A stretch of 64,000 bases of DNA from a bacterium (GTDB lineage Bacteria; UBA10199; 2-02-FULL-44-16; JAAZCA01), in contig CAXXGI010000003.1 in assembly GCA_963674695.2 (NCBI GenBank), positions 576,001-640,000 of the forward strand, written 5' to 3'. The notes beneath the pieces were generated by a model, which had not been told where the DNA came from, searched no databases, and worked only from the letters and a program-made list of their open reading frames with translations. The first letter of the stretch is position 1. Each line of letters starts with the position of its first letter. Position numbers and translations under genes: made by a program. This document shows, piece by piece, positions 3,391 to 63,565 of this stretch.

Positions 3391-4284
3391 TTACCGCAAC
3401 GCGCTCGTCGTGGGTTGCGGAACCGATGATGCCTGCACACCGGCCATCTCGCGAACGAGCACCTTCGCTTCGGTGAAGAGGTGCTCGATCCACGGATGCC
3501 GTTTTTTCGGATAGATGAGATGAGGCATCCCCTCGATGTGGGCAAGTTCGCCCGCTCGATTGATCGCCTCGGAAAGTCCGCCGAGGGTGTCGACCAATTT
3601 GAGATGCTGTGCTTCTTCACCGGTGACGATACGGCCATCGGCGATCGTTTCCAGATCTTCCATCGGAATATTGCGCGCGGTCGAAACGGCTTGCTTGAAC
3701 TGCACATGGATCTGCTCGAGCATCGCTTCGAGAATGACACGCGCCTCTGGAGAGATGGGCGCATCGATCGGCATCATGTCTTTGAATTGCCCACTCTTGA
3801 GCGTCTCGTGCTGAACCTTCGCCCACTTGAGCAGATCGCCGATCATAATATGTTCGAGGCGCACGCCGATCGAACCCGTGATCGTTCCCGCATTGGCGAA
3901 GATCTCGGTGGCACCGAGCGCGACATAATAGCCGCCGCTGGCGGCGACCGATCCCATCGACGCGATCACCGGTTTTTTCTTGGCGAGGATGCGAATGGCC
4001 TCGAGGATCTCCTGCGAAGCAGCGACCGAGCCACCAGGAGACTGGATGCGCAGGATGACGGCACTGACATTGTCGTCTTCGAGGAAGTCGTTCGCCTGGC
4101 GGACGGTCTCGTCGGAGGTGAGAATCGTTCCGGCGACGGTGATAACGCCAACGCCGCTCCTGTCGAAGAAGGACGTCTGCGTCTGACCCGACCGGGAGAG
4201 AAAATAGACCATCATCCCGAAGAGAAATGATCCTCCCAACAGGACGACGGCAATCAGAGTAATGATGAGCCCCTTGTGTCGCAT
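3391..4284 (-). CDS. sppA: Signal peptide peptidase SppA
   Basis: SPGG, AASGGYY and TGSIGV motifs; rpsA-sppA-ihfB synteny. Confidence 0.93.
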   Translation of the reverse strand: MRHKGLIITLIAVVLLGGSFLFGMMVYFLSRSGQTQTSFFDRSGVGVITVAGTILTSDETVRQANDFLEDDNVSAVILRIQSPGGSVAASQEILEAIRILAKKKPVIASMGSVAASGGYYVALGATEIFANAGTITGSIGVRLEHIMIGDLLKWAKVQHETLKSGQFKDMMPIDAPISPEARVILEAMLEQIHVQFKQAVSTARNIPMEDLETIADGRIVTGEEAQHLKLVDTLGGLSEAINRAGELAHIEGMPHLIYPKKRHPWIEHLFTEAKVLVREMAGVQASSVPQPTTSALR

Positions 4285-4331
4285 GGGCTAAGTCCCCCGG
4301 GACGGATCGTCAAGCGTGACGCTGAAGCACC

Positions 4332-6032
4332 CTACTCAACCGTCGTTTCGTCTGCTTCTTCAGCTTTTGCTTCTTCCACGACGGGTTCCTTCGGCTCGTC
4401 CGTTTCTTCAGCCTTCACTTCTTCCACGACGGGTTCCTTCGCAACGACGGCCTTGGTCACCGCGACGATTCCCAATGTGAAATGACGATCGCGGGGGTTG
4501 GTTTCGGCGACAGCGATATCGAGCTCAGCGCCAACGCCCACACCTTCCGGGCAATCCTTCTTCGGGACGAGTCCCTCGACACCCTCTTCGAGTTTGACGA
4601 TGGCGCCCACTTCGTTCATCCGGACGACCTCTCCCTTGGCCTTGGTGCCTTCGGTGTAGGATTCATGGATGCGATCCCAGGGATCATCCTGAAGCTGCTT
4701 CAGGCCAAGCGAGAAACGCTCGTTGTCGGGATCGACGTGCAGCACGACCGCTTCGACTTCGTCGCCCTTGTTGAAGAGCTCCGAGGGATGCGCGAAGTTC
4801 TGCACCCACGTGATGTCGGAGATGTGGATCATACCGTCGATTTCGCCACCCACTTCGGCGAAGACGCCGAAATCGGCGATGTTGCGCACGGTTCCGGTCA
4901 CCTTGCTCCCGATCGGGAATTTCTCTTCGAGATGCTCCCACGGATTGGGCTCGGTCTGCTTGAGTCCCAGCGAAATGCGCTTCTGATCGATATCGACGTC
5001 CAGGACGATCGCGTCGACGGCATCGCTCGCCTTGAGGACCTTCGAGGGATGCTTGACCTTCTTCGTCCAGCTCATCTCAGAGACGTGGATGAGCCCCTCG
5101 ATGCCCTCATCGAGCTCGACGAAGGCGCCGTAGTCGGTGAGGTTGACCACCTTGCCCGACACGCGCGAGCCGACCGGATAGCGCGATTCGACATCGGTCC
5201 AGGGATCTTCTTTGAGCTGCTTGAGCCCCAGGCTCACCTTCTCGCTCTCGGAATCGAACTTGAGGACCACGACGCGGATGTCGTCGCCCACCGAGAACAT
5301 CTCGGAGGGATGGTTGATGCGACCCCAGCTCATGTCGGTGACATGCAGCAGGCCGTCGATGCCACCCAGATCGACGAAGACGCCGTATTCGGTGACGTTC
5401 TTGACCACGCCGTCGAAGACCTGACCCTCGGCCAGATTCGCCAGCGTTGCCTCGCGCATCTTGGAGCGCTCTTTCTCCAGGATGACTTTACGGGAGAGCA
5501 CCACATTTCCACGGCGCTTGTTGAGTTTGATAATTTTGAAGGGATAGGTGTTGCCCACATATTTGTCGAGATTGCGTGCCGGGCGAAGATCGACCTGCGA
5601 GGCCGGAAGAAAGGCCCGCACGCCGATGTCGACGGAGAGCCCGCCCTTCACCTTGGAGACGATCATGCCGTCGATGACGCCATCGTTTTCGCTGACATCC
5701 GCGAGGCGATCCCAGGTGCGCATGGCATCCGCGCGTTCCTTGGAGAGCACCATATTTCCCTGATCGTTCTCGATCGACTCGAGCAGGACGTCGATCTCCG
5801 TGCCTGCCTCGGCATTCACTTCACCGCGCGGGCTTTTGAACTCTTCGATCGGGATCTGACCTTCGGACTTAAACCCGATGTCGATGATGACGAAATCGCG
5901 GGTGACGCCGACGATCTTACCCTTGATGATCTGCCCCTCTTTGAGCTGGACCTTCTGCGACCGCTCTTCGAAGAGCTGGCCAAACTCGCTCTGCCTCTGC
6001 TTTTCGGTTGGTTCGATATGAAGTGCACACAT
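4332..6032 (-). CDS. rpsA: 30S ribosomal protein S1
   Basis: Repeated S1 domains (YGVFVDLGGIDGLLHVTDMSW etc.). Confidence 0.98.
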   Translation of the reverse strand: MCALHIEPTEKQRQSEFGQLFEERSQKVQLKEGQIIKGKIVGVTRDFVIIDIGFKSEGQIPIEEFKSPRGEVNAEAGTEIDVLLESIENDQGNMVLSKERADAMRTWDRLADVSENDGVIDGMIVSKVKGGLSVDIGVRAFLPASQVDLRPARNLDKYVGNTYPFKIIKLNKRRGNVVLSRKVILEKERSKMREATLANLAEGQVFDGVVKNVTEYGVFVDLGGIDGLLHVTDMSWGRINHPSEMFSVGDDIRVVVLKFDSESEKVSLGLKQLKEDPWTDVESRYPVGSRVSGKVVNLTDYGAFVELDEGIEGLIHVSEMSWTKKVKHPSKVLKASDAVDAIVLDVDIDQKRISLGLKQTEPNPWEHLEEKFPIGSKVTGTVRNIADFGVFAEVGGEIDGMIHISDITWVQNFAHPSELFNKGDEVEAVVLHVDPDNERFSLGLKQLQDDPWDRIHESYTEGTKAKGEVVRMNEVGAIVKLEEGVEGLVPKKDCPEGVGVGAELDIAVAETNPRDRHFTLGIVAVTKAVVAKEPVVEEVKAEETDEPKEPVVEEAKAEEADETTVE

Positions 6033-56218: not shown

Positions 56219-56436
56219 AGCAAATCTCCATTGCACTTCTTTTGTCATTCCCGCGAACGCGGGAATCTCGCTTTTAATAGCAGATCGAGATCCCCGCGTT
56301 CGCGAGGATGACAAAAACACAGGTTTGTCATTCCGCCTGCCCGCCGGTTGTGTGGCGGGGGAATCTCGATTTTTCAAGTACTTCGAGATTCCCGATTCCT
56401 CGGGAATGACAACAAAAGCTCTTTTCCCGACAACCT

Positions 56437-59186: not shown

Positions 59187-59318
59187 ATTATGAATCGACT
59201 GCTGCAATAGTCACAATATGATCGCACAGAAGAAATGAGTGGTTGCGATATCATCACACAATTGTCTTCCGATTTCTGATGATGATCTTGATCTTGATGT
59301 TGATTTCTGATTACCGGC

Positions 59319-59651
59319 TCACCTGAGCCGGTAGAGCATCCGGCTGATTCGATCTGCCCTTTCCTTGTTCTCCATTTCACATCGTGCCGGAATCAAGGAG
59401 AATGCGGCGGCCAGATCGATGCAGGCCGACACCTCCGCGAGCGAAGCCCTGGAGATCTGAAAGAAGCGCTTTCGTTCCCCCTTGCCCATCCGAGCATTGC
59501 CCTCCGCCAAGTTGAGCACGACGGAAGCCATGGCCCTTCTGAGCTGATCGACCAGATAGCCGTACCCACGTGGCCATCCACCGGAGAGCCCCCCGAGCTC
59601 CTTCGCCAGAGTGATCGATTCCCGGTAACAGTCCAGTTTTTCATGTAGCAT
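59319..59651 (-). CDS. Four-helix bundle protein (TIGR02436 / 23S-IVP / Avd-like), copy 1
   Basis: HEKLDCY...LVDQLRRAMASVVLNLAEG...RFFQISRASLAE; GGGAGG RBS. Confidence 0.88.
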   Translation of the reverse strand: MLHEKLDCYRESITLAKELGGLSGGWPRGYGYLVDQLRRAMASVVLNLAEGNARMGKGERKRFFQISRASLAEVSACIDLAAAFSLIPARCEMENKERADRISRMLYRLR

Positions 59652-59655
59652 TTGA

Positions 59656-59731
59656 GCCTCCCTGTGGTGGTTAATTTTTTTTGCCCCCCGACCGGGCGAG
59701 GGGCAAAAAAAATTAACCACCACAGGGAGGC
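59656..59731. repeat. Central near-perfect palindrome holding both RBSs
   Basis: 32 bp perfect arms 59656-59687 and 59700-59731 around a 12 bp quasi-palindromic CCGG core. Confidence 0.95.
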
Positions 59732-59734
59732 GTC

Positions 59735-60070
59735 ATGAATCATGAAAAACTGGACTGTTACCGGGAACTCATCATGGTCTCGAAGGAGCTCGGGGGGCTC
59801 ATGAAAGGATGGCCGAGAGGCTCTGGCTATCTGGTCGATCAGCTCAGAAGGGCCATATCGTCTGCTGTGCTCAACTTGGCGGAGGGCAACGGCAAGCGGG
59901 GGCAACCACGTGAACGAAAGCGCTTCTTTCAGATCTCGATGGGATCCATCGCGGAGGTGGCAGCGGGCCTGGATCTGGCCGCCGCATTCTCCTTGATTCC
60001 GGCACGAGTACAGGAGGAGAATAAGGCGATTCTGCGAGCAGCATACAACCGGATCAGGAGACTCTCCTGA
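59735..60070 (+). CDS. Four-helix bundle protein (TIGR02436 / 23S-IVP / Avd-like), copy 2
   Basis: HEKLDCY...LVDQLRRAISSAVLNLAEG...RFFQISMGSIAE. Confidence 0.88.
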   Translation: MNHEKLDCYRELIMVSKELGGLMKGWPRGSGYLVDQLRRAISSAVLNLAEGNGKRGQPRERKRFFQISMGSIAEVAAGLDLAAAFSLIPARVQEENKAILRAAYNRIRRLS

Positions 60071-60222
60071 TCCGGCTCCGTTATCGATATCTCGAAGAAT
60101 CGGTTTCTCCCAATCGGTTCTCGGTTTTCCGTTTCGGTTTGAAATGTCAGGCGGGGTGATAACGGCACATTGTTGTTGTCAGATCCAATAGTGATCACTA
60201 CAATTCACTTCATTCACCACTT

Positions 60223-60549
60223 ATGACCTACAATCGTTGGACAACCGCCATCATGCTCAACGCCTTCGTCTTTCCCGGTGCCGGGCATTGGCTCATCGGT
60301 CGTCGCCTTTCCGGCGTGATCATCGGCGTGCTCGCCGTTATCTTTTTGATGACACCGCTAGCGGCCTACACGCGGACCACACTGCACCTCTTTTCACTCC
60401 TGAAGTACAAGGGCACCGGTCTTTCGATGATGGGCCAGGCGTGGACCATGAACCAAGACCTCATCCTCTGGTGCCTGGCCGGCCTCGTGATCACCTGGGG
60501 ATTTGGAATTCTGGATCTGGTGGTGAGGCGGCGACGCCGTGAACAGTGA
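60223..60549 (+). CDS. Small membrane protein
   Basis: FPGAGHW motif, hydrophobic segments, basic tail. Confidence 0.7.
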   Translation: MTYNRWTTAIMLNAFVFPGAGHWLIGRRLSGVIIGVLAVIFLMTPLAAYTRTTLHLFSLLKYKGTGLSMMGQAWTMNQDLILWCLAGLVITWGFGILDLVVRRRRREQ

Positions 60550-63532: not shown

Positions 63533-63565
63533 CAAAAGGCCGGGGTTGCCCCCGGCCTTGTTTTT
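63533..63565. terminator. Bidirectional intrinsic terminator
   Basis: AAGGCCGGGG-ttg-CCCCGGCCTT followed by a T tract, between convergent genes. Confidence 0.8.

Follow-up and report, generated by a model that had tools for sequence, protein, structure and literature searches.

We analysed a 64,000-nt stretch of DNA (the window; positions 576,001 to 640,000 of contig CAXXGI010000003.1, from a bacterium of the GTDB lineage UBA10199) in which a 1,000-bp repeated element, here called the cassette, carries two divergent genes, A and B. The stop codon of each gene lies inside a GC-rich hairpin. On the comparative evidence from copies and orthologues these hairpins are selected structures, unlike the ordinary terminators of the genome, and they most likely represent mRNA 3' ends, not the ends of the element. 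The hairpins and their genes are located as follows:

59312–59333, minus strand: left hairpin, a 10-bp perfect stem (as RNA 9 bp plus a tetraloop) around the TGA of gene A
60049–60075, plus strand: right hairpin, as RNA a 12-bp stem with a 3-nt loop around the TGA of gene B
59319–59651, minus strand: gene A, 110 aa, MLHEKL...MLYRLR*, PF05635 (6.6e-20) / TIGR02436
59735–60070, plus strand: gene B, 111 aa, MNHEKL...NRIRRLS*, PF05635 (2.8e-13) / TIGR02436

A preliminary description of the locus had placed both stop codons in terminal hairpins at exactly these coordinates, which proved correct, with perfect arms: the left arms (59312–59321 and 59324–59333) match over 10 nt and the right arms (60049–60061 and 60063–60075) over 13 nt, both at 100%. 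The stop codon of gene A (complement of 59319–59321) lies inside the left hairpin and that of gene B (60068–60070) inside the right one. In each case the TGA pairs with the TCA of the final sense codons, and the stem starts in the last codons of an open reading frame (ORF) with conserved start and ribosome binding site (RBS) and finishes 5–12 nt past the stop. Folded as RNA of the gene strand the left hairpin reaches -17.7 kcal/mol (z -3.05; 1 of 200 shuffles equally good) and the right hairpin -22.6 kcal/mol (z -6.33; 0 of 200). Perfect inverted repeats of at least 10 bp with a loop of at most 8 nt occur eight times in the window, whereas 20 dinucleotide shuffles contain 0.65 on average. Both cassette hairpins are among these eight, and four of the remaining six carry AAA...TTT (or AA...TT) outer pairs like the canonical terminators of the genome.

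Both hairpins have the outer stem CCGG[C/A]TCA...TGA[G/T]CCGG in common. The 5' arms on the gene strand, TACCGGCTCAGG and AACCGGATCAGG, are identical at 10 of 12 nt, whereas the final 14 codons of A and B have only two residues in common, so the motif is indeed shared in spite of diverged 3' coding sequence. The compensatory difference between left and right that had been pointed out is present in the sequence, but it does not amount to covariation of homologous pairs, since the hairpins stand in different registers to their stop codons. Genuine evidence for covariation is that from copies in the same genome and from orthologues, as compared below. Intrinsic terminators resemble the hairpins in having a GC-rich stem of 8–13 bp with a small loop at or over the 3' end of an ORF, a feature found at both sites. 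In contrast, the U-rich tract (about five or more U in 8 nt) expected just past the stem is missing at both: as already described, no poly-T follows, with one T (left, gene strand) and three T (right) in the 8 nt past the stem. Ordinary terminators of this genome are AAA...TTT-flanked stems with T-tails, for example at 63536–63559 and 55005–29, whereas both cassette hairpins are without such flanks and without a T-tail. A terminator scan lists neither site.

The genome of the organism (3.03 Mb in three contigs, C1 to C3) contains 19 PF05635 matches, 14 of them in seven head-to-head pairs. A BLAST search with 59190–60225 as query returned near-full-length copies of 84–91% identity at C3:18335-19410 (query 14–1016), C2:896580-897511 (query 88–1014) and C3:6645-7542, an internal-deletion derivative at C1:1028107-1028475 and several fragments. 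Contigs from three DNA sets break inside the repeat, and one joint, 59385 to 59981, corresponds to the known internal-deletion derivative. The left stem was found at 11 loci and the right stem at seven plus one degenerate variant; all of these lie inside cassette copies or fragments, never outside. Comparison of the copies reveals a single compensatory change from G-C to A-T in each hairpin, CCGACTCA/TGAGTCGG at C3:246163 for the left and GGAA/TTCC at C2:897360 for the right. Stems are broken only in decayed copies (left at C3:56423, right in the copy at C3:245.5k), and no intact copy in the genome has a stem-disrupting change. In the core of the left stem 3 of 16 columns vary, compared with roughly half in the 45 coding nt upstream. 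A cassette of only 66% identity at C3:919080-919787 has hairpins of different sequence over both of its stops.

In other genera of the same family and order genes of A type (MLHEKL...MLWGLMR*) and B type (MNHEKL...IRALP*) are kept as head-to-head pairs. The right-type register was aligned for six sequences from four genomes, with 93.6% of cells paired and 6 of 13 pairs changed on both sides; its covariation score was reached by none of 500 shuffles, and slid controls pair at 19–53%. For the left-type register (six sequences) 93.3% of cells are paired, both partners have changed in 5 of 10 pairs and again 0 of 500 shuffles reached the score; as these 12 sequences were picked after the folding had been seen, the scores are inflated and are to be read as upper bounds. 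The right hairpin of the window itself covaries with the orthologues L054 and L026.

We counted stop hairpins as contiguous stems of at least 8 bp with a loop of 3–8 nt that overlap the stop codon. Among genes of relatives, 11 of 25 of B type and 4 of 20 of A type have one, counts whose underlying pattern misses some genes such as L054; in the own genome 120 of 2353 ORFs of at least 300 aa do. B-gene stop hairpins are thus enriched about tenfold over the background. Eight of the 11 B hairpins of relatives are followed by at least five T in 8 nt, a further likeness to intrinsic terminators. Hairpins of other genera differ in sequence and register, and the offset of the hairpin centre from the stop varies by lineage. 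Only the A(MLW)/B(ALP) clade shows the enrichment. On this comparison the stop hairpin recurs, is enriched in certain lineages and shifts its register, but is not universal; the expectation that homologues carry it holds for part of them, with about half of the B genes and four fifths of the A genes being without.

We put the chances at about even that the hairpins are 3'-end mRNA stem-loops, one for each divergent gene, which mark or protect the 3' end and may slow translation termination. We infer that the acting molecule is the mRNA and that the hairpin exerts its effect on it. A terminator-type or 3'-protecting role is suggested because the stem sits at the ORF end, is free to slide and change, varies between lineages and is mostly T-tailed in relatives; the drift of the register between lineages indicates that a structure is needed only at the gene end and not a sequence-specific site. 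In the lineage of the window the hairpins would derive from terminators whose T-tail eroded while the stems grew long and perfect, which favors protection or definition of the 3' end over efficient intrinsic termination. The stem would define the 3' end by a weak termination poor in U-tract, or alternatively would block 3'-to-5' exonucleases after termination further downstream. With the stop codon inside the stem a brake on translation termination is also possible, as with stem-loops of stop-proximal repetitive extragenic palindromes (REPs) in E. coli. As inner parts of a 1,000-bp palindromic cassette without transposase, the hairpins would keep outward transcription self-contained at any landing site.

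Several observations speak against this reading, beside the upper-bound nature of the covariation scores. Termination at the window stems is doubtful because they have no U-tract while the organism uses canonical T-tailed terminators. The register-57 B hairpins, which are used by most B genes, are paired at 81.8% in nine sequences, and 80 of 500 shuffles reach their score; covariation, which had been suggested as a check, is seen in the copies and in the right- and left-type orthologues, but not above shuffles in this group. Averaged over the relatives' 58 non-redundant paired genes, the segment centred on the stop is no more stable than coding sequence, at -11.6 kcal/mol compared with -11.2 kcal/mol for coding controls, with z below -2 in 10 of the 58. 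A more distant paired clade (VKMLYKLR/AMIMRLRR ends) is without hairpins; its member L071 has the same TACCGGCTCAGGTGA ending and no 3' arm. A wobble test of the strand was neutral, with 14 G.U cells (sense strand) against 12 A.C cells. Finally, both hairpins are intact in the derivative C1:1028107-1028475, which is without promoters and most of both genes; this is compatible with a function that does not depend on expression of the two genes, or simply with inheritance from a master copy under selection.

Rho-dependent termination with a C-rich, G-poor flank was rejected as the main model. C exceeds G downstream of 45 of the 58 paired genes of relatives (mean skew 0.16), but in the window the flank of gene A is only mildly richer in C (0.21 vs 0.15) and that of gene B has G over C (0.26 vs 0.20).

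A close functional parallel to such 3' stem-loops is given by the E. coli REPs within 15 nt of a stop codon. Passages of PMC12306157 describe that REPs that lie under 16 nt away from the stop codon stall ribosomes and lower translation, and that REPs stabilize upstream mRNA. They are stable GC-rich palindromes without U-tract, located at or over the stop and repeated in the genome, all of which is shared by the cassette hairpins. Unlike REPs, the cassette stems are never free extragenic repeats and occur only within copies of one cassette: the 11 left and 8 right loci do not provide the many independent extragenic copies expected of REPs or REP doublets (REPINs). The stop codon lies inside the cassette stem, whereas a REP begins a few nt past it. 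Nor was the cassette found to be linked to a REP-associated tyrosine transposase (RAYT), as none of the four Y1_Tnp matches in the genome has these palindromes on its flanks.

The ends of the element lie elsewhere, as seen from its parts:

59203–60202: complete repeat unit, 1,000 bp, imperfectly palindromic, with two divergent four-helix-bundle genes, bounded by terminal inverted repeats (TIRs); defined by BLAST of copies, an alignment of seven copies and empty sites
59203–59228, plus strand: left TIR TGCAATAGTCACAATATGATCGCACA; flanks diverge directly outside TGCAG
59229–59311: left subterminal flank with TGATCT repeated 3.7 times at 59283–59304 (TRF), kept between copies
60076–60177: right subterminal flank with ATCGG/CGGTTT-type words, kept between copies
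60178–60202, plus strand: right TIR GTCAGATCCAATAGTGATCACTACA; ends matched in other copies

The element ends in TIRs, TGCAGTAGTCAC.../...GTGAnnACTGCA, of which 17 of 26 positions are complementary in the window copy; their sequences (left TGCAGTAGTCACGATATGATCGCACA, right ...AATAGTGAGCACTGCA) begin with TG...CA. With 0–2 mismatches the left TIR is also present at C3:56280 and, on the minus strand, at C3:19410, C2:848872 and C1:866218; the right TIR is found again at C2:897486-897510 and, on the minus strand, at C3:18338-18362 and C3:796350-796374. Homology between copies, as determined by BLAST and the alignment of seven copies, spans 59203 to about 60202–60205 and so extends 109 nt past the left and 127 nt past the right hairpin up to the TIRs. 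A perfect 7-bp target duplication is seen in two of the three copies with both ends, CTTTATA at C3:18338-19410 and CATCACA at C3:56280, the right end of which is 4 nt short. One further case is a 7/8 flanking direct repeat at the derivative C1:1028107-1028508. The window copy is without target duplication (flanks CGACTGC vs ATTCACT).

Empty sites lead to the same boundaries. In three relatives (G001, G012 and G008) the mazG orthologue is followed within 0–18 nt by a gene for a DUF6677-like small membrane protein; in the window the latter starts at 60223, 1,036 nt past the mazG stop. Because mazG directly adjoins the membrane-protein gene in these relatives, we read the entire interval 59187–60222 as an insertion. 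The proposals that the hairpins delimit the element and that insertion boundaries coincide with them must hence be given up, the empty site spanning the whole gap between mazG and the membrane-protein gene. What stands of the view of the hairpins as structural end signals other than terminators is that they are selected and unlike the genome's terminators; boundaries of the element they are not. Since both neighbors abut in relatives, they are probably co-transcribed and the element has probably split their operon. An outward promoter-like site (TTGTCA-17-TACAAT, 10/12) lies at 60176–60204 over the right TIR and the flank junction. The DUF6677-like gene, parted from mazG by the insertion, follows 19 nt downstream, and the site may be a hybrid promoter that the element brought along.

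In several respects the cassette resembles miniature inverted-repeat (MITE-like) non-autonomous DDE elements, with TIRs of the form TG...CA, multiple copies, internal deletions and no transposase; putative 7-bp target duplications are seen at some copies and not at the window copy. Unlike these, it carries two intact conserved genes, is a near-complete palindrome and has no partner found in the genome. A search of the own genome for an autonomous partner with the same ends, restricted to PF01609, PF00665 and PF01797, found none. TIR-like matches at C3:692021 and C3:720087 were rejected as partner ends, being weak and inside housekeeping genes, and the two transposase candidates, a DDE_Tnp_1 ORF and an rve fragment, were rejected for having no cassette-like ends. 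The genome is altogether poor in insertion sequences, with one DDE_Tnp_1 ORF (C2:704014-705474), one rve fragment and four Y1-like ORFs; despite this it contains about a dozen copies or fragments of the cassette. Readings as integron attC sites or as a CRISPR-like array were dropped, since the copies are dispersed and not arrayed.

A first alternative, which we regard as rather unlikely, is that the hairpins act within the whole folded element, as single-stranded DNA, cruciform or read-through transcript, and guide processing (e.g. by RNase III) or mobility. The 1-kb palindrome would then form one long stem like an rRNA intervening sequence, with the hairpins capping the end of the arm-to-arm pairing. 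The predicted fold of the element is indeed a single long hairpin of -634.5 kcal/mol, in which both stop hairpins branch off as side stems at its base and pairing resumes between the outer flanks. Further points in its favor are the position of the element between genes that adjoin in relatives and are hence probably co-transcribed, the survival of the hairpins in gene-less or decayed derivatives, the likeness of the 5' arms next to unlike codons and the lack of a gene-strand preference in the wobble test. PF05635 genes are also described, in the part of 10.1101/2024.02.27.582315 that concerns them, as ORFs of 23S rRNA intervening sequences. These (S23p ORF) share with the cassette the protein family, a compact insert and ends that can pair into a long stem. 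In contrast to them, the cassette lies between mazG and the DUF6677-like gene and not in an rRNA gene, has two head-to-head genes, TIRs and, at some copies, putative target duplications, and its stop hairpins are local and do not form a long closing stem. The fold is, moreover, a prediction on a sequence that is palindromic by construction, the hairpins are missing from at least half of the orthologous cassettes, and TIRs with 7-bp target duplications are typical of DDE transposition by cut and paste, a process that works without internal hairpins. In a more specific and improbable version, the hairpins together with the long stem would be processing signals of a transposase-less cassette resembling an intervening sequence: after landing within an operon, as here between mazG and its partner gene, read-through RNA would fold and be cut at or beside the hairpins, possibly aided by the cassette's own Avd-like proteins, which would free stable hairpin-capped A and B messages and limit harm to the operon. 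If true, this would extend the principle of the rRNA intervening sequence to protein-coding operons.

We give little credence to the view that the hairpins are sequence-specific RNA or DNA sites for the cassette's own Avd-like proteins or a host factor and serve autoregulation. Within the element family an outer stem ACCGGnTCAGG/CCTGAnCCGGT is found at both ends, and PF05635 includes Avd, the nucleic-acid- and reverse-transcriptase-binding protein of diversity-generating retroelements. A conserved site is hard to reconcile with stems and registers that vary freely among genera whose proteins are still 55–60% identical, and with the many orthologous cassettes that have no hairpin.

The hairpins could also be functionless leftovers of the element's palindromic history that hitch-hike with it. 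Copies related by descent need no selection to share a stem, and the average stability at the stop in relatives does not exceed that of coding controls. Such a neutral origin has a low probability in view of two independent compensatory double changes and no disruption in intact copies at 9–16% divergence, of different-sequence hairpins at the same place in diverged cassettes including that at C3:919080-919787, and of the enrichment in B genes over background.

Recognition of the hairpins by an HUH (Y1) transposase, as at the ends of IS200/IS605 or in REP/RAYT systems, is very improbable, and with it the idea of nicking sites. The own genome encodes four Y1_Tnp-like ORFs, and one of them (L135, 2173–2922) resembles REP-associated tyrosine transposases at a score under the family cut-off (56.7 vs 80 bits). 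Likeness to these systems extends to the placing of hairpins towards the ends of a mobile element and to a related doublet in inverted orientation. The IS200/IS605 type, however, has its hairpins a few tens of nt from the ends and neither TIRs nor target duplications, whereas the cassette has TIRs and, at some copies, target duplications, and its hairpins lie more than 100 nt inside. None of the 11 left and 8 right hairpin loci is near any of the four Y1 genes, the flanks of which hold other repeats, and the hairpin sequences never occur outside cassette copies.

Two of the Y1 loci deserve description. At L135 (G000, the own genome, C1:747500-752000) a solitary PF05635 gene (1351–1804) lies within a 31-nt inverted repeat of CTTCCCA words, about 430 bp from the 249-aa Y1-like ORF; an ORF upstream was labeled phage-integrase-like by eye from its sequence. 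At L136 (C3:155500-160000) a REPIN-like doublet of GTCATCCCCGCG...CGGGGATGAC words (4265–4337) lies near another Y1 gene. Such words are also present in the window at about 56247–56266 and inside one decayed cassette copy, and they probably represent the true REP family of this genome.

Genes A and B are divergent paralogues of the 23S_rRNA_IVP or 'four helix bundle protein' family, 73% identical over 97 aa. Their coding regions form the arms of the long imperfect palindrome (59363–59477 with 59912–60026 and 59497–59645 with 59741–59889, each 83% complementary), and this homology stops at 59363/60026, before either hairpin. Between the genes lies a further palindrome:

59656–59731: central 76-bp palindrome, 38-nt arms at 95%, with both RBSs (GGAGG) inside; fold -71.2 kcal/mol, z -13.3

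Both promoters presumably also lie in this palindrome. Its GC stem is preceded by T8 and followed by A8 on both strands, opposite to the order in a bidirectional terminator, and an extended -10-like word, TGgTTAATT, is mirrored on both strands; it probably comprises back-to-back promoters with 5' stem-loops on both mRNAs. A search against Rfam gave four matches with E<1, all far under gathering scores.

The A and B proteins of the window are closer to each other than to orthologues of other genera (about 50–61%), and their last approximately 14 codons nevertheless retain type-specific forms, which suggests that gene conversion between the A and B arms halts before their 3' ends. One subfamily of variant cassettes (C3:56280-57295, C3:796345-797306, C3:245464-246183 and C1:114447-114510) has the 5' halves of both genes and the central palindrome swapped for about 270 bp of unrelated sequence, which holds flank-like words in opposite orientation.

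The hairpins as such are modest, gene-end stem-loops with good comparative support; the feature is of a common kind, its carrier unusual. The main gain is that a gene pair for 'rRNA intervening-sequence proteins' is carried by a discrete, palindromic mobile element of 1 kb whose ends are defined TIRs. Literature found by PF05635 and the family names, as far as its text was accessible, describes no two-gene palindromic PF05635 cassette. To our knowledge PF05635 proteins are widespread and unexplained outside diversity-generating retroelements. A compact self-contained unit with both mRNA ends putatively marked offers a simple system for tests of expression, binding and mobility.

Structured or repetitive DNA often begins at the stop codon also elsewhere in the PF05635 family. 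In many of the single PF05635 genes at metagenome loci L150–L184, tandem words of 7 nt such as GATTAAG begin in the final codons and take in the stop codon.

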